Part shown: piece after piece, positions 9,337 through 54,555 of the stretch
How the letters are laid out: every line of letters begins with the position of its first letter
Numbering within the stretch: position 1 is the stretch's first letter
Origin: Clostridia bacterium
GTDB lineage: Bacteria; Bacillota; Clostridia; Oscillospirales; CAG-272
Direction: 5' to 3'
Assembly (NCBI GenBank): GCA_017539425.1
Contig: JAFYHA010000141.1
Location: 3,839 to 67,838 of the forward strand
Length of the DNA: 64,000 nucleotides
Made by a program: the position numbers and the translations under genes
The notes under the pieces: generated by a model
The model's database searches: none
Told to the model about the DNA's origin: nothing
Seen by the model: only the letters and a program-made list of their open reading frames with translations

Positions 9337-10236
9337 TCAAGAACCCGAACCGTTCTGGTTGCCGGCGTCGGTCATAGTTGAAGCAGGCATCACTTTTTCC
9401 TCAAGGAGTTCACCCTTGAGCATAGCGCTCAGATCCTGCTTGAGCAGAGACGGAGAATATCCCCTCTTAATGGACCCGTTGTTCGCGATGGAAATCGTTC
9501 CGGTCTCTTCGGAAACGATGATGACGACAGCGTCGCTGACCTCGCTGACGCCGACTCCGGCACGATGACGGGCACCCATGTCTCCAAACCCGGTTCCGTT
9601 TTTGGAGGAAGGCAGCATGCATCCGGCAGCGGCCACGCGATAATCGCGGATGATCACCGCTCCGTCATGAAGAGGAGATCCTTTGTAAAACAGATTCCGA
9701 AGGAGCTGTTCGCTCGGCTTGCCGTCGATCTGTGTGCCTGTTGCGGCAATATCGCCGAGCTTGGTCGAGCGCTCGATCACAATGAGTGCGCCGACCTGTC
9801 CGCGTGAAAGCTCCGCGACGGCGGCCACGGTCACATTGATAAAATCGTCCACTTCGGTCTGGTTCTGATTGATGAACCGCAGGGACAGCGTGTTGATTCC
9901 CCAGGTCCCGACCCGTTCCAGAAGATCCCGGATCTCAGGCTGGAATAGAATGAACAGTGTCAGAACTCCGGCCTGGAACAGAACCTTCAGCACCATGTAC
10001 GAGGCCGACATCTTCACGAAAAAGCTGGCCACATAGATCAGGAACAGCAGGCCGATGCCTATGATCAGCTTGATTGCGCGGCGGTCGGCGATCAGGGAGA
10101 TGATCAGATACAGGAGAAATGTCAGCGCCGCGATGTCCAATACTGCGATCAGATACTCTCCGACGCCCATTTCCTTCAAAAAATCAAGGTTCAAGCCGTG
10201 AAGGACCTGATCAAAAAAACGTCCGACAGCTTCCAT
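9337..10236 (-). CDS. cdaA: diadenylate cyclase CdaA
   Basis: 299 aa. Three N-terminal TM segments, and a DAC domain with LHDGAVII and GARHRAG motifs. Confidence 0.93.
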   Translation of the reverse strand: MEAVGRFFDQVLHGLNLDFLKEMGVGEYLIAVLDIAALTFLLYLIISLIADRRAIKLIIGIGLLFLIYVASFFVKMSASYMVLKVLFQAGVLTLFILFQPEIRDLLERVGTWGINTLSLRFINQNQTEVDDFINVTVAAVAELSRGQVGALIVIERSTKLGDIAATGTQIDGKPSEQLLRNLFYKGSPLHDGAVIIRDYRVAAAGCMLPSSKNGTGFGDMGARHRAGVGVSEVSDAVVIIVSEETGTISIANNGSIKRGYSPSLLKQDLSAMLKGELLEEKVMPASTMTDAGNQNGSGS

Positions 10237-36164: not shown

Positions 36165-37319
36165 TCATCGGGCCCAGGCCTGTCTTCCGCCTGAATAGAC
36201 GGCCTCACATACCAGCGACTCCGGTGTTCCGTCGCAGCTAAGCAGGACCACGTCCGCCCGCTTGCCCGGTTCCAGAGACCCGATGATTGATTCAAGCCCC
36301 ACTTCCTGCGCCGGCGCCAGACTGGCGCTGTACCAGGCTTCTTCAAGTGAAGCCCCCGTGAATCTCATATAGTTTCGGACGGCCAGATCCAGGGTCAGGG
36401 TGCTTCCCGCCAGTGCTCCGTCTTCGGTACGGGCTTCCCCGTCACGCATAATGACTTTTTCGCCGGCGATCCGGTATTCCCCGTCCGGGCAGCCGGTTCC
36501 CTCCATGGAATCCGTGATCAGGACCAGTTTGCTCCCTTTCAGTTCCCGGGTCAACCGAACCACCTCGGGGGCAATGTGCAGTCCGTCCACGATCAGTTCG
36601 CAAAAAACATCTTTACGTGTCAGGGCAGCCGCTACCACTCCGCCCGAGCGGTGATGGAGCGAAGGCATGGCGTTGAACAGATGCGTGACCGCTGTCACAC
36701 CGCAGTCGAACAACTTCTCCGCAGTGGCGTAATCCGCCATCGTGTGCCCCAAGGACACTGTGGCTCCGCTGTTCAGTACGGCAGTCAGGAACGTATGTTC
36801 CGGATCATCCAGTTCCAGTGCGGCGGTCATATGCTTTGCACCGCGCACCTGCTGAAGGAATCCGGTCGCCTCCCCGGCATTCAGGGCAGACAGCCGGTCC
36901 GGAGCATGTGCTCCTCGTTTTGCCGGGTTCAGATACCGCCCCTCAAAATGGATGCCTCTCCATATGGATCCTTCGCCGGCTTTGCCGATCTCTGTCACGG
37001 CCCGACCCCATTCTTCCGGAGTCCCGGAGGCCAGCGTAGGCATCACCGAGGTCACTCCGTGCGAAAGATAGAAGGTCTGCATTCGGGCCAGCCCTCCCGC
37101 ATCCGCATACACAAAGTCAGACCCTGCGCATCCGTGCGTGTGAACGTCAACAAGCCCCGGCATCACATACAGCCCGGAGGCCCTGATGACGATGTCCTCC
37201 GGAGAGGAGTCCGCGCATCCGGCCGGGAGGATCCTTCCGTTTTCGCAGATCAGATCCTGTTTCTGAAAACTCCGGTCCGCGGCACGGTAAACCCATCCGT
37301 CTTTAAAAATGGTTCTCAT
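36165..37319 (-). CDS. nagA: N-acetylglucosamine-6-phosphate deacetylase
   Basis: Start moved to MRTIFKDGWVY at 37319, 1 nt after the GNAT stop. Amidohydrolase motifs GLVDVHTHG and SLGHT. Confidence 0.9.
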   Translation of the reverse strand: MRTIFKDGWVYRAADRSFQKQDLICENGRILPAGCADSSPEDIVIRASGLYVMPGLVDVHTHGCAGSDFVYADAGGLARMQTFYLSHGVTSVMPTLASGTPEEWGRAVTEIGKAGEGSIWRGIHFEGRYLNPAKRGAHAPDRLSALNAGEATGFLQQVRGAKHMTAALELDDPEHTFLTAVLNSGATVSLGHTMADYATAEKLFDCGVTAVTHLFNAMPSLHHRSGGVVAAALTRKDVFCELIVDGLHIAPEVVRLTRELKGSKLVLITDSMEGTGCPDGEYRIAGEKVIMRDGEARTEDGALAGSTLTLDLAVRNYMRFTGASLEEAWYSASLAPAQEVGLESIIGSLEPGKRADVVLLSCDGTPESLVCEAVYSGGRQAWAR

Positions 37320-37901: not shown

Positions 37902-38269
37902 TGGACTCGAGGGGAGTCGAACCCCTGTCCGAAAAGCCTCTGATACAACTTTCTCCGTGGGCAGCTTGCTGTTTGGATTTCCCCGGGGTTTCGCGAAAAC
38001 AAGCATCCTCGAATCCGGGTAGCCACTTAAGTCATGACCCGCTCAATGGCAAAGACGGGTTCACGTTCATCGCTTTCCTGACGTTCGGGCTCTGAGCAGC
38101 GATGGGCATCAGAGGGAACGGGCGGGAACGCATTCCCGCGGCCTGCCGTTAGGCAGCAACAGCAACTTTGTCGTTGTCGTTTATTTTTGAAGGTTGAGCA
38201 GTTTACAGGATTACTCGGCCTGCCACGCTTATCATATCTCGGACCCCCCGTCGAAACCATTACGAGCCC
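37902..38269 (-). ncRNA. ssrA: transfer-messenger RNA (tmRNA)
   Basis: Minus strand begins GGGCUCGUAAUGGUUUCGACGGGGG and ends GGGGUUCGACUCCCCUCGAGUCCA. The acceptor stem GGGCUCG/CGAGUCC carries the G3:U wobble (alanine identity) and a T-arm. The internal tag frame ends AAC GAC AAC GAC AAA GUU GCU GUU GCU GCC UAA (NDNDKVAVAA-stop). CCA is not encoded. Confidence 0.9.
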
Positions 38270-51377: not shown

Positions 51378-52916
51378 TCAAGCCTCGGCTTCCGCCTCAA
51401 GAGCATCCATCAACTTTTCAATATCGCCCTCGATCTTGCTCTGGTAAGTTGCAATCGCTGTAGTCAAAGACCCACGGCTTCCGCCCAGGCCCTGGATCAC
51501 ATCACCGAATGTGCCGAAGTTGAACACCAGACCCGGATCAAAAACACGACTGCTCAGAATGATTCCCAGGCTTTCGCGAGATTCCTCGTCACTGCTGTAC
51601 TTGGTCTTCAGGGACAGATCCACATAAGCGGTCTGCAGGCCATAGTAGGAATCTGCGGCAAGCGCTTCCAGAACCATACCCGTCATGGACAGCCTGTCTG
51701 CCGCATTGTCATTCGGGATAGACAGAAGACCCGTGGTATGCTGGCTGACGGTGGAATAATACTGTTTCTGCTCTTCCTCCAGCATTGGGATCGGCAGAAT
51801 GCCGAATTCAACTTCAGACGAACGCATGTTGGTGACTTCATCCAGTCTCATCCAGAAGAACAGTCCATGCCCGGTTTCAAACATACGGGTATATGCCGCG
51901 TCATCAATATTCTGCTTGTGATGATTGAAGAAGTAATTGGAATTCATAAATTCTCCAATGATAATGACAGCATCCACATCCCGGTCATCACCAAGGGCAA
52001 ATTCAAATTCTCCATCCTCGTTCGTACGGATGATTCTGGCTCCGCTGCCATGGAAGAAGCTGGTGCTGACGTCATGTTTGCCAAGGAATCCCCAGAAGTC
52101 TTCCGCGTCATCGACGCCGTCTCCGTTACCGTTGGTATCCGGATTGCCGACTTCTTCGCAGTATCCCATCAGTTTATCATACGTCCACTCATAGTTGGCC
52201 ACATCATCATAGAACGTGGTCATACCACGGTCATGGGCCGCCTTCTTGCTGAAGGCCAGGGCGGCAGTTGCGTCTTTATCGTTGACGTTGATTGCCGTTG
52301 CTGTCAGGTACAGCGTTCCCATAATGGACAGACTCTCAATTGAGTCCTGATCCCACCAAGGCTTTTCCAGATCGATATACTCAACCTGGTTTAAATCCAC
52401 GAACAGGCCCTTGTTCAGCATGGACGGGAACTCCAGCAGGCGGGGATATACGACCTCATAGGCATCGTCCCCTGCTCCACCGCTCGTCACCTGGTTTTCG
52501 ATCATACCGGGAACGGACGAATTGGTGGCAAACGTCTGAGTGATCTCAACTCCGTAGTTCTCTTTGATCAGTCCGTTTCTTTCATAGACCGCATCATTGA
52601 CAAGGTCTGCATTGATGCCTTCGCTTACAATGTCACGGTACTGCCGGACAGTCTCTCTCCAGCTATCCACTTCCCAGCAAAGAACATCCAAGGTCGATCC
52701 CCAGCTATAGGTTGTGGGGATATCCGGTTTTATCCGGGTATCCAATTCTTCGGGCTTGGTTTCGCTTTCACCGCTACCGCTGTTCTGGGTCTCTTTTGAG
52801 GTTTCGTCACCCGTTTTGCCGCCCGAATCCGTTGTTGAGGATCCACAGGAAGCCAGGACCGTTATGAACATCATCGCAGCCAAAACCAGACAAAGCAATC
52901 TAATCAGGTTCTTCAT
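51378..52916 (-). CDS. extracellular solute-binding lipoprotein (large CUT1/LplA-like family), orphan; paralog of 21200..22756
   Basis: 512 aa. Lipobox FITVLASC-G and a Ser/Gly/Glu-rich linker. Blocks shared with the other copy: (I/V)NDAVYERN, PWWDQ, LSIMG, and FG(V/I)L..P(L/M)..E(D/E)Q..Y. Confidence 0.8.
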   Translation of the reverse strand: MKNLIRLLCLVLAAMMFITVLASCGSSTTDSGGKTGDETSKETQNSGSGESETKPEELDTRIKPDIPTTYSWGSTLDVLCWEVDSWRETVRQYRDIVSEGINADLVNDAVYERNGLIKENYGVEITQTFATNSSVPGMIENQVTSGGAGDDAYEVVYPRLLEFPSMLNKGLFVDLNQVEYIDLEKPWWDQDSIESLSIMGTLYLTATAINVNDKDATAALAFSKKAAHDRGMTTFYDDVANYEWTYDKLMGYCEEVGNPDTNGNGDGVDDAEDFWGFLGKHDVSTSFFHGSGARIIRTNEDGEFEFALGDDRDVDAVIIIGEFMNSNYFFNHHKQNIDDAAYTRMFETGHGLFFWMRLDEVTNMRSSEVEFGILPIPMLEEEQKQYYSTVSQHTTGLLSIPNDNAADRLSMTGMVLEALAADSYYGLQTAYVDLSLKTKYSSDEESRESLGIILSSRVFDPGLVFNFGTFGDVIQGLGGSRGSLTTAIATYQSKIEGDIEKLMDALEAEAEA

Positions 52917-53005
52917 GTCACTGTCGTCTTTTCTAAAATCAGAAAAAACGCTCTTCCTCCTTTACAAAATGTGGTTGATGGAAATGAACAAGATTTCGTG
53001 GTCAT

Positions 53006-53069: not shown

Positions 53070-53099
53070 AAAAAAGAAGGGGGGAATAATTGATCCCCC
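53070..53099 (-). terminator. rho-independent terminator after the XRE/S24 repressor gene
   Basis: Minus strand reads GGGGGAtcaattatTCCCCCC followed by TTCTTTTTT. Confidence 0.75.
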
Positions 53100-53124: not shown

Positions 53125-53910
53125 TTATTTCTTTTTGAGTTTCCCGATCACACGGCCATAGCAGTGGACTTCGGAAAACTGGCTCAGCTGAATCGGTTTG
53201 TAAGCCGGGTTCAAGGATTCAAGGCGGTCTCCCTTGTACAACTTGAAATAGGATTCTCCGTCGGCTACAAACAAGCCCAGTTCTCCGGGCTCGATACCGT
53301 CGCAGGCCTGCACCATAAGGTAATCTCCGTCATGGAACTTGGGTTCCATACTGTCGCCGGATATTACGACCACGAAATCTGCGTCCCTGGTTTTGTCAAC
53401 ATCTGGAATCCAGATCTCATCCGTTGTTGTCGTGTCCTCAGATAGGTACTGTCCGGTACCGGCGGAAGCCTTCAGATCCGCGTACAACGCGATCTTGCGT
53501 TTCCCGGGCGCCGTATCCTTCTGGATAGCGGGTAGAATGCGAGTTGACACAGGTTCTGGCGCGCTCTTCACACTCTCTCCGGACAACCGGATCGTCTCCA
53601 GTTTCAGCAAGGCAAGCACAACGTCCCTGCCATGCTGATCCAGTGCCCGGAATTCTTCAACGAGCTGTGTTTCGTCATCGTCCAGCATCAGTTTCTCTCC
53701 GCTCTCTTCTCCGTTGATCAGGTATCCGTACGGGATTTTCAGAGCATCAGCCATTGCAATAATATGATTGAATTTCGGAACGTCCACGACCCCGGCAAGT
53801 ATTTTTGCCAGTGTGCTTGCCGAAATGCCGGTAAGCTCCGCAAGCGTTTCATTGGTCATCTTTCTTTCCGCTTTGACTTTTTTAATTCTCTCAATATAAT
53901 TGTTGTCCAT
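53125..53910 (-). CDS. XRE-family HTH repressor fused to an S24 (LexA/CI-like) self-cleaving peptidase domain
   Basis: Start MDNNYIERIKKVKAERKMTNETLAELTGISASTLAKIL (HTH_XRE) at 53910. The C-terminal S24 domain has an Ala-Gly candidate cleavage site (LKASAGTGQY), the catalytic Ser motif ISGDSMEP, and a downstream Lys (SYFKLYKG). Confidence 0.88.
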   Translation of the reverse strand: MDNNYIERIKKVKAERKMTNETLAELTGISASTLAKILAGVVDVPKFNHIIAMADALKIPYGYLINGEESGEKLMLDDDETQLVEEFRALDQHGRDVVLALLKLETIRLSGESVKSAPEPVSTRILPAIQKDTAPGKRKIALYADLKASAGTGQYLSEDTTTTDEIWIPDVDKTRDADFVVVISGDSMEPKFHDGDYLMVQACDGIEPGELGLFVADGESYFKLYKGDRLESLNPAYKPIQLSQFSEVHCYGRVIGKLKKK

Positions 53911-53945
53911 AGAGACTATCCCTTCTTTCTCTTTTGGCTGATTGC

Positions 53946-53974
53946 ATATTACCACAAATGGAATCGTTTGTAAA
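53946..53974 (-). promoter_or_regulatory. putative promoter of the repressor gene (TTTACA-17-TAATAT) with an operator half-site in the spacer
   Basis: Minus strand reads TTTACAaacgaTTCCATTTGTGGTAATAT. The motif's terminal TGG acts as a TGn extended -10. Confidence 0.6.
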
Positions 53975-54013
53975 GTGTTTTCTAAAAATTTTTCCGTTTT
54001 TTGTCATAAGCCC

Positions 54014-54042
54014 TTGACAATTTCCATTTTTGGTGGTAAGAT
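54014..54042 (+). promoter_or_regulatory. putative promoter of the small membrane protein gene (TTGACA-17-TAAGAT) with an operator half-site in the spacer
   Basis: TTGACAatTTCCATTTTTGGTGGTAAGAT. The architecture matches the divergent repressor promoter. Confidence 0.62.
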
Positions 54043-54057
54043 TGTGTCAGAATCAAG

Positions 54058-54083
54058 CCACAAACGGAAATTTCCATTTGTGG
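54058..54083. promoter_or_regulatory. 26-bp palindromic operator CCACAAACGGAAATTTCCATTTGTGG
   Basis: Two inverted copies of TTCC[A/G]TTTGTGG around a central A. It lies between the predicted -10 (54037..54042) and the RBS/ATG at 54106. Confidence 0.7.
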
Positions 54084-54105
54084 TCATCCAAGAAAGGCTT
54101 CCGTT

Positions 54106-54396
54106 ATGGATTCGTTATCCAAGATTCAGTCCGTGTCATCCTATAAACCTCTTCGCCAGGCGGCGGTCAAGGCCCGGTTCTTTCCTGCAAAAACCGATTC
54201 TTCCGTAAAAGTCGCTACACTTATCAAGGTGCTGGCTTTACTGGGAGCCGCAACAGGCTTCTTCGGAATCATTCTTTTTACCTGCATCGCTGTAGCCTCC
54301 GGCATCAGCCTTTCAATCACCATTTTTGGAATCAGCGCATTCTCTGCCCTGGAGATGATCTCACTTCACCGGTTGCGCAAGATGTCCCCTATGTAA
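54106..54396 (+). CDS. small hypothetical membrane protein (96 aa, two predicted TM helices)
   Basis: The ORF has its own consensus -35 promoter, a GAAAGG RBS 8 nt upstream, and a strong terminator 40 nt downstream. The polar N-terminus (~35 aa) is followed by VATLIKVLALLGAATGFFGIILFTCIAVA and SGISLSITIFGISAFSALEMISL, then a basic tail HRLRKMSPM. I recognise no family. Confidence 0.55.
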   Translation: MDSLSKIQSVSSYKPLRQAAVKARFFPAKTDSSVKVATLIKVLALLGAATGFFGIILFTCIAVASGISLSITIFGISAFSALEMISLHRLRKMSPM

Positions 54397-54437: not shown

Positions 54438-54470
54438 GCACACGGCTCTCCCCAAGCCGTGTGCTTTTTT
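54438..54470 (+). terminator. rho-independent terminator after the small membrane protein gene
   Basis: GCACACGGCT-ctcccca-AGCCGTGTGC (10 bp) followed by TTTTTT. Confidence 0.88.
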
Positions 54471-54555
54471 CAAAAACGGTTTGTAAACATGTTGCACAAT
54501 TTGAGTGGGCGTGAGTTGTGCACTTGGGCAAAAACCAGTAGAGTAAAAAAAGCAA

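Follow-up and report, generated by a model that had tools for sequence, protein, structure and literature searches.

A candidate bidirectional control region for a CI/LexA-like repressor and a divergent small membrane protein in gut and rumen Clostridia

What is the role of a tight cluster of short repeats located between two divergent genes? The question is raised by a 195-bp intergenic region (53911-54105) in a stretch of 64,000 nucleotides from a Clostridia bacterium, here called the window. The region separates a leftward gene coding for a 261-aa repressor from a rightward gene coding for a 96-aa protein, predicted to be a small membrane protein. We propose, with a probability of about 0.7, that the region as a whole controls, in both directions, a chromosomal switch of two genes, which code for a self-cleaving CI/LexA-like repressor and a membrane protein. 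The repeats themselves are, judging by their form and positions, very probably operators of the adjacent repressor.

The pairing is of interest in view of what is known elsewhere. In several well-studied bacteria, a repressor with a peptidase S24 domain and a divergently encoded small membrane protein stop cell division during DNA repair. What appears to be the same two-gene switch was found in dozens of these Clostridia. The outcome is a regulator family, a consensus for its candidate operators, which keep fixed positions in both promoters, and an unannotated family of candidate effectors.

A repeated motif in two divergent promoters

Both direct reading and a pattern search found exact copies of the 12-mer TTCCRTTTKTGG at 53952-53963 (minus strand), 54022-54033 (plus), 54058-54069 (minus), and 54072-54083 (plus), while a fifth copy, with one mismatch, was located at 53992-54003. 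All five are packed into 136 bp (53950-54085). The only further exact match in the window is at 9594, within a coding region. Shuffles of the window gave an expectation of 0.08 exact matches per 64 kb, and none of 100 shuffles produced five. With four exact copies and one degenerate copy against this expectation, the repeated motif reported in the original prediction was confirmed.

The two divergent promoters proposed there were also recovered, by a consensus scan, each with a TG ahead of the -10 box:

53946-53974, minus strand: repressor promoter (P_rep); -35 box TTTACA at 53974-53969, 17-nt spacer, TGn and -10 box TAATAT at 53951-53946; predicted start of transcription ~53939
54014-54042, plus strand: effector promoter (P_div); -35 box TTGACA, 17-nt spacer, TGn and -10 box TAAGAT; predicted start of transcription ~54049

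Copies of the motif overlap both of these predicted promoters, which are of the extended -10, sigma-70 type, as well as the leader of the 96-aa gene. The placement of the copies within the two promoters had been described as identical. We observed that it is similar, with a small shift. The leftward TTCC begins at nucleotide 6 of its spacer, the rightward TTCC at nucleotide 3, and the rightward copy has three extra bases (TTCCATTTTTGG+TGG) ahead of the -10 box. The rightward gene has, as was claimed, more sites than the leftward one, three against one.

A 26-bp palindrome had been reported as well. The inverted repeat does exist at 54058-54083 and falls, as described, between the rightward -10 box and the ribosome-binding site (RBS) with the ATG at 54106. 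Its centre, however, is AT (12 + AT + 12, reading GGAA-AT-TTCC) and not a single A, and one of its pairs (C/A) is mismatched.

Repressor family, small-protein family and the conserved dyad

The two genes on both sides of the region are as follows:

53125-53910, minus strand: repressor gene, 261 aa, with an N-terminal XRE-type helix-turn-helix (HTH) domain and a C-terminal peptidase S24 domain (Pfam)
54106-54396, plus strand: candidate effector gene, 96 aa, with a disordered N-terminus and a two-helix hydrophobic hairpin

In the repressor, Pfam places HTH_3/HTH_19 at residues 7-69 and Peptidase_S24 (PF00717; 65.6 bits against a cut-off of 23.3) at residues 147-255. An alignment with 21 homologues showed Ala150-Gly151, Ser187 (in GDSMEP), and Lys223 to be invariant; by motif homology, the former would be the putative cleavage site and the latter two the putative catalytic dyad. 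This combination of domains and residues is, at the level of sequence, the signature of self-cleaving repressors of the LexA/CI type, and sequence matches in the PDB were to UmuD', lambda CI, and LexA.

We considered whether the protein could be a canonical LexA (TIGR00498 / COG1974) and rejected this identity. The score against the TIGR00498 lexA model was 24.2 bits with a cut-off of 110.95, the C-terminal part alone contributing the match, and the N-terminus carries HTH_3/HTH_19 in place of the LexA winged helix. Because of these two facts, the name 'LexA family transcriptional regulator' given in the NCBI record MBR6411348.1 ('Clostridia bacterium' metagenome-assembled genome, MAG) is, on these profiles, a loose one. 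The features seen are those of the CI/HdiR type (COG2932), namely an XRE/CI-type HTH followed by S24, a phrog_4 match of 123 bits, and candidate dyad operators in the gene's own promoter; the COG assignment is made by these features and not by a COG score. Thousands of homologues of the repressor are present in databases.

The Firmicute SOS box CGAAC-N4-GTTCG had no match with up to two mismatches in 53911-54105, the nearest one being at 53661, inside the repressor gene. Elsewhere in the window candidate LexA boxes were degenerate or intragenic, such as GGAACGTATGTTCC at 36788, which falls within a deacetylase-like gene, and were rejected. In two further loci (L097, 7851-8780; L098, 5887-6816) the gene immediately 3' of the S24 repressor codes for a second protein of 309 aa, with HTH_3 and Phage_CI_repr and no recorded S24 domain, and an ogt-like methyltransferase gene is nearby.

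A scan with one genome per species confirmed 505 relatives of the repressor, and the best 80 loci (L001-L080) were fetched. All of them come from Clostridia MAGs of gut and rumen, with repressors 44-51% identical to that of the window. The upstream regions of these 80 loci have a common architecture: P_rep as TTTACAAA ... TGnTATAAT, P_div as TTGACAA ... TGnTATAAT, an A/T-rich block between the two, and a recurring dyad. TTTACAA, with the conserved TGnTATAAT of P_rep, was found in 69/80 loci, and the TTGACAA...TGnTATAAT of P_div in 58/80.

The dyad is 14 bp long, TTCC-N6-GGAA. There were 66 exact copies, distributed over 50 of the 80 upstream regions, compared to 0-3 for each other spacer length k of TTCC-Nk-GGAA between 0 and 11. 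With at most one mismatch allowed, 218 copies were found and every one of the 80 upstream regions had the dyad, while an equal amount of flanking control DNA had about 24. The exact dyads of the fetched loci are concentrated in one place, since 66 of about 78 belong to the repressor upstream region. The original prediction had stated that the motif does not resemble the Firmicute LexA box, which agrees with the family operator being TTCC-N6-GGAA and not CGAAC-N4-GTTCG.

We also observed that the dyad recurs at fixed distances from the promoters. It starts 2 nt past the P_rep -10 box in 54/80 loci and is situated 12-13 nt past the P_div -10 box in 39/58. A third position, between the -35 boxes of the two promoters, is occupied in 51/80 loci; the dyad is there 60-62 nt upstream of where the P_rep -10 box ends and, seen from P_div, at -51/-52 from the -10 end in 37/58 loci. 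In a subset of loci (e.g., L004, L008, L010, L022), TTCC-N6-GGTG fills the spacer of P_div. Naturally, the 80 loci are related and a part of the conservation reflects shared ancestry; on the other hand, in the information profile the non-motif positions of the same regions were poorly conserved.

Two other conserved stretches were seen in these regions. Few stretches of the region are as conserved as the A/T block just upstream of the P_rep -35 box (53975-53995 in the window, minus strand GGAAAAATTTTTAGAAAACAC; consensus AAAAAtTTTTCAAAAAcCTC in L001-L080), and its conservation exceeds what would be expected of an UP element. The block matches 12/15 positions of the CodY box. A conserved GTCAC/GA is located 4-10 nt past the P_div -10 box in L001-L080, near the predicted start of the small-protein transcript; the window has TGTCAGAA at 54045-54052.

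The candidate effector gene has its own family. The gene divergent from the repressor codes, in 59/80 loci, for a membrane protein of ~100 aa with two helices that belongs to no Pfam family, and the same divergent pair was found in further loci reached via the small protein. The family is marked by an N-terminal MNxYY, followed by ...GFxGvIGGiE... and ending in ...E..cLK; a full-library profile search gave 212 representatives among 1.84 billion protein clusters, of similar size and all unnamed. The window protein is collinear with the family alignment, including the nearly invariant Glu83 (E83), and is probably a diverged member of this unannotated family, as the alignment suggests. Its AlphaFold (AF2) model has 30 disordered N-terminal residues and helices at 32-65 and 69-92 with pLDDT 80-89. 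The protein had no matches in Pfam, NCBIfam, PHROGs, or PADLOC, and a fold search with the model against the PDB returned nothing below E = 2. No Pfam match pointed to a similarity of the YneA/SosA type (a single N-terminal transmembrane helix with an extracellular domain, LysM in YneA), the prediction being a two-helix hairpin.

The repressor and the dyads were present without the upstream small gene in the remaining 21 loci (L019, L025, L029, L033, L036, L038, L043, L047-L049, L054, L056, L059, L064, L067-L070, L072, L075, and L077). Therefore, the repressor is seen as the conserved core of the module, and in those genomes it may have other targets.

Five candidate operators and the alternative readings

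Extending each 12-mer of the window to 14 bp produced five candidate operators of the form TTCC-N6-GGnn, scored with the position weight matrix (PWM) of the family:

53950-53963, minus strand: O1, TTCCATTTGTGGTA, in the P_rep spacer and reaching two bases into the -10 box; 13.4 bits
53992-54005, plus strand: O2, TTCCGTTTTTTGTC, between the two -35 boxes, with the strong half toward P_rep and the other half degenerate; 7.5 bits
54022-54035, plus strand: O3, TTCCATTTTTGGTG, at positions 3-16 of the P_div spacer; 6.6 bits
54056-54069, minus strand: O4, AGCCACAAACGGAA on the plus strand (TTCCGTTTGTGGCT on the minus), the palindrome's left arm, at ~+7..+20 on the effector transcript; 7.0 bits
54072-54085, plus strand: O5, TTCCATTTGTGGTC, the right arm of the palindrome, ~+23..+36; 9.0 bits

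All five have the left half of the family dyad, and O1, O3, O4, and O5 also have the inner right half (CCR-N4-TGG, i.e., TTCC-N6-GG). Three of the sites occupy family positions. O2, 51 nt before the end of the P_div -10 box, is the positional orthologue of the dyad between the -35 boxes; O3 has its counterpart in the TTCC-N6-GGTG found at the identical spacer position in L091, L092, and L088 and in the subset of family loci; O4 starts 13 nt past the P_div -10 box, at the family offset. O5 and O1 are common only to the closest relatives. L088/L093 have TTCCGTTTGTGGTA at the place of O1, and L091 and L092 have TTCCAAATATGGTA there. The site is specific to the window clade, in which the +2 operator of P_rep is gone and O1 in the spacer has replaced it.

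Comparison with relatives at 74%, 65%, and 61% repressor identity showed which bases are kept. TTCC and CC-N6-GG remained while the spacer bases changed, and CC-N6-GG was present in every copy of O1, O3, O4, and O5 across the four available lineages. In L091, whose repressor is 65% identical, the palindrome is replaced by ATCCGATTTTGGAA-TT-TTCCATTTTTGGAA, which makes two full dyads 16 bp apart centre to centre, the distance also observed between O4 and O5, with spacers that are direct and not inverted. In L088/L093 (74% identical), the left arm is CCTGTATTGGAA; three consecutive positions are unpaired and the right arm has no compensating changes, yet TTCC and GG are retained. Because of these two observations, the 26-bp palindrome is read as two adjacent candidate operators and not as one long site.

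The original prediction had described each TTCCRTTTKTGG as a half-site bound by a monomer, with the palindrome as the only full site, the repressor promoter weakly held through a single half-site, and the effector promoter tightly held. The near-perfect inverted symmetry of the 26-bp unit, which extends to its spacer bases, would fit this description, as would the T-rich inner sequence and the strong/weak polarity common to all five copies and the single good half kept by O2. However, the family unit is a 14-bp TTCC-N6-GGAA with strict spacing in 80 loci, each 12-mer of the window holds the inner dyad, and O1, the supposed single half-site, is the best dyad match of the five. The direct dyads of the L091 leader and the uncompensated left arm of L088 also speak against half-sites, which we consider unlikely. 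Given the strict spacing of the family dyad and the retention of CC-N6-GG in O1, O3, O4, and O5, each 12-mer is most likely a full asymmetric operator for a repressor dimer.

The sites could also belong to a different protein, for example, a global or sporulation-linked regulator, with the neighbouring repressor recognizing something else. The adjacency of the module to gpr-spoIIP in ~30/80 loci and the highly conserved A/T block beside the P_rep -35 box are in line with this possibility. Still, the dyads accompany the repressor gene in 80/80 loci, in many chromosomal contexts and also in the 21 loci without the small gene; within the fetched loci, exact dyads are essentially confined to the repressor upstream region; and the dyad form with overlap of the own promoter is what would be expected for an autoregulated HTH dimer. 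We regard this explanation as improbable. An RNA hairpin acting in the 5' leader on stability or translation, instead of a DNA operator, would suit the position of the palindrome between the transcription start and the RBS, and the window leader does fold at -13.6 kcal/mol (z = -2.0). For the relatives, though, the z values were 0, -0.9, and +1.1, the three unpaired positions in L088 are uncompensated with TTCC and GG kept, and three further copies of the motif are outside the transcript, so the chance of this reading is very small. As to a generic interspersed repeat, which the original prediction named as a possible refutation, or a chance cluster, only the A/T richness of intergenic DNA suggests it. 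The single other exact copy in 64 kb lies within a gene against the 0.08 expected, and the copies are positionally conserved across species, which leaves this explanation hardly credible. A DnaA box, considered on account of CCACA, matched at best 6/9 positions and was rejected.

Several observations weigh against the reading of the five sites as operators of a damage-responsive switch. Four of the five have modest scores with the symmetric family matrix (6.6-9.0 bits), and 27 positions in the window reach 8 bits; since the scores are not exceptional singly, the case for the sites rests on clustering, position, and conservation in the clade. The window clade lacks the right-hand AA of the dyad and may have a changed binding mode. 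In O1 and O3 the TGG is at the same time the TGn of the extended -10 element and would be conserved for promoter reasons too. The small protein of the window is weak against the family profile built without its own clade, with 6 bits (15 bits for its 58%-identical relative). The window shows no link of the system to DNA repair genes. Also, some S24 regulators depart from the RecA paradigm, IrvR among them (PMC7101444).

The family dyad matrix was also used as a regulon finder and detected no regulon within the 64-kb window. Its top hit, at 52931 (20.4 bits), belongs to the 5' leader of the lipoprotein gene further downstream. In relatives, a hairpin of different sequence takes this place, which indicates a structure rather than an operator, and the hit was rejected. 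The other high hits, inside genes or between rpoA and rpsD, were rejected as well. The hairpin itself (52925-52950, minus strand; 10-12 bp) separates AGGAGG from the ATG of the lipoprotein gene (51378-52916) and leaves the Shine-Dalgarno (SD)-like box ~36 nt from that start codon. It is kept in three relatives with different stems (RNA fold z = -2.1, -3.2, and -2.6; e.g., L088 2800-2830 and L093 1218-1245) and may unite the SD and the AUG or gate translation. Dyad-like sequences were also seen within small genes. In the window, CACCATTTTTGGAA at 54318-54331, within the 96-aa coding region, is the O3 14-mer reversed, and in the small gene of L091 a perfect TTCCTTCTTCGGAA spans the conserved FFGI codons; these could be chance occurrences or an additional intragenic site.

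The proposed switch, its genomic setting and known systems

In the proposed switch, repressor dimers would bind the five 14-bp operators O1-O5. Occupancy of O1 would shut the repressor's own promoter, whose spacer and -10 box it covers, giving negative autoregulation. Occupancy of O3 would block P_div at the step of RNA polymerase binding, and O4 and O5 (~+7..+36 of the leader) would, when occupied, block effector transcription just past its start. Autoregulation of the repressor along with repression of the divergent gene had been put forward in the original prediction, and it is the natural reading, since the motif overlaps both core promoters and the comparative evidence agrees. The distances from O2 to O1, O3, and O4 (42, 30, and 64 bp, respectively) are close to integral numbers of helical turns, which would make pairwise cooperation among operators, similar to that of lambda CI, possible. 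The cooperative repression and the harmful product put forward in the original prediction are, at this stage, conjectures.

If the repressor works like LexA, CI, and HdiR, a signal would lead to cleavage at Ala150-Gly151, after which both promoters would be freed and a burst of membrane protein would follow. The most likely signal would be RecA on single-stranded DNA after DNA damage; as the actual trigger, we would give RecA and DNA damage about even odds. For the effector, the likeliest role would be that of a damage-induced division inhibitor or a membrane-active protein, suggested by the proposed tight control of the gene, a product that is predicted to form a small hydrophobic hairpin, and the parallel with lexA-yneA and lexA-sosA; a function as a division inhibitor or toxin is nonetheless a tentative and rather doubtful assignment.

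The locus is, by its gene content, chromosomal and not a prophage. Its neighbours in the window are genes for a solute-binding lipoprotein, a metallophosphatase, an NTP-transferase, an SBP_bac_5 (peptide-binding) protein, and GlnRS. Two sporulation genes, gpr (germination protease) and spoIIP, precede the pair in ~30/80 loci, 0.5-2.5 kb upstream of the module (L002, L011, L017, L020, and ~25 more); this synteny is absent from the window. Other neighbours in the family are rpoBC and groESL. A prophage immunity region was rejected, as the neighbours in the window and in the family loci are the genes just named and not integrase, replication, or structural genes or a Cro-like partner. An origin in a prophage or a defence system was rejected too: PHROGs matched the repressor only (generic CI-like), PADLOC gave weak HTH matches only, the small protein had no phage match, and the nearest phage proteins are CI-like repressors at no more than 33% identity.

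Other features of the window are the following:

54438-54474, plus strand: terminator-like hairpin with a T run, 3' of the effector gene (terminator scan)
53070-53099, minus strand: terminator-like hairpin with a T run, 3' of the repressor gene (terminator scan)
37902-38269, minus strand: tmRNA gene, tag peptide DNDKVAVAA

With its own intrinsic-terminator-like hairpin and T run downstream, the effector gene is considered monocistronic. The wider window, as read by eye from the list of open reading frames, has housekeeping genes (MetRS, GlnRS, and an rpoA-like gene with a ribosomal-protein-like cluster), consistent with a chromosomal and not a mobile origin.

A wider view is that the module serves spore-forming Clostridia of gut and rumen as an unrecognized checkpoint for stress or DNA damage. 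In it, a CI-like self-cleaving regulator with a distinct operator code, TTCC-N6-GGAA, would release a new family of two-helix proteins that would halt division or act on the membrane, independent of canonical LexA or replacing it. We find this view speculative and on balance improbable. If it were true, the frequent adjacency to gpr-spoIIP would hint at a link to the sporulation decision. Should the locus be no more than a local pair under autoregulation, with a product that does no harm, it would be an ordinary example of a repressor with its operators. The sites, read as operators, also illustrate drift within a single clade, where the right half changed from GGAA to GGnn and the autoregulatory site moved from +2 into the spacer. 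A compact switch of this kind, tightly repressed if the proposal holds, could serve as an inducible expression system in Clostridia.

We found no description in the literature of a module of an XRE-S24 repressor and a small membrane protein in Clostridia, or of its operator or effector. The closest arrangements are lexA-yneA of Bacillus subtilis and lexA-sosA of Staphylococcus aureus, where the repressor gene is divergent from a gene for a small membrane protein. As in the window pair, an S24 repressor faces a small membrane protein across a shared control region with operators (repression by them being, in the window, what we infer), and, as in our proposal, the repressor is autoregulated and the small protein is made only upon its inactivation. 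On the other hand, the HTH of the window repressor is of the XRE/CI type and not the LexA winged helix, and the family operator is TTCC-N6-GGAA instead of CGAAC-N4-GTTCG. TisB and DinQ of Escherichia coli are LexA-controlled single-helix membrane peptides of ~30 aa with antisense-RNA control. They share with the window pair a small hydrophobic protein under an S24 repressor (presumed in our case), while the window protein is three times larger. YneA and SosA are SOS-induced division inhibitors (PMC13396833; bioRxiv 10.1101/364299). The small protein of the window differs from both as a predicted two-helix hairpin without LysM and without detectable similarity to described families.

Phage CI/Cro switches resemble the window pair in having divergent promoters with multiple operators. 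The best relative of the repressor outside its family is that of the Clostridium phage phiCs5676-1 (33% identity over 98% of the length, phrog_4). This phage repressor faces a Cro-like HTH gene in a lysogeny module with integrase and replication genes and different repeats, whereas the window pair is located among housekeeping genes. The non-canonical LexA of Bacteroidetes has a phage-repressor-like N-terminus, a cleavable S24 domain, and a short dyad in its own promoter; it is reported to be restricted to Bacteroidetes, with motifs including GGA-N5-TCC and a full SOS regulon (PMC8565304). The domain plan and the dyad in the own promoter are similar to those described here, but the motifs differ and no regulon beyond the local pair was seen in the window. 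HdiR of Lactococcus and Streptococcus (COG2932) is a chromosomal, non-prophage protein with a CI-like HTH and S24 that has a minimal SOS-like regulon and regulates itself and a divergent target (PMC8565304). The window repressor is alike in being chromosomal, non-prophage, and of the CI-like HTH and S24 plan and, in our proposal, in regulating itself and a divergent target, a likeness by description. HdiR targets umuC-type polymerase cassettes, while the partner of the window repressor is a membrane protein with a family from Clostridia (Oscillospiraceae-like MAGs).

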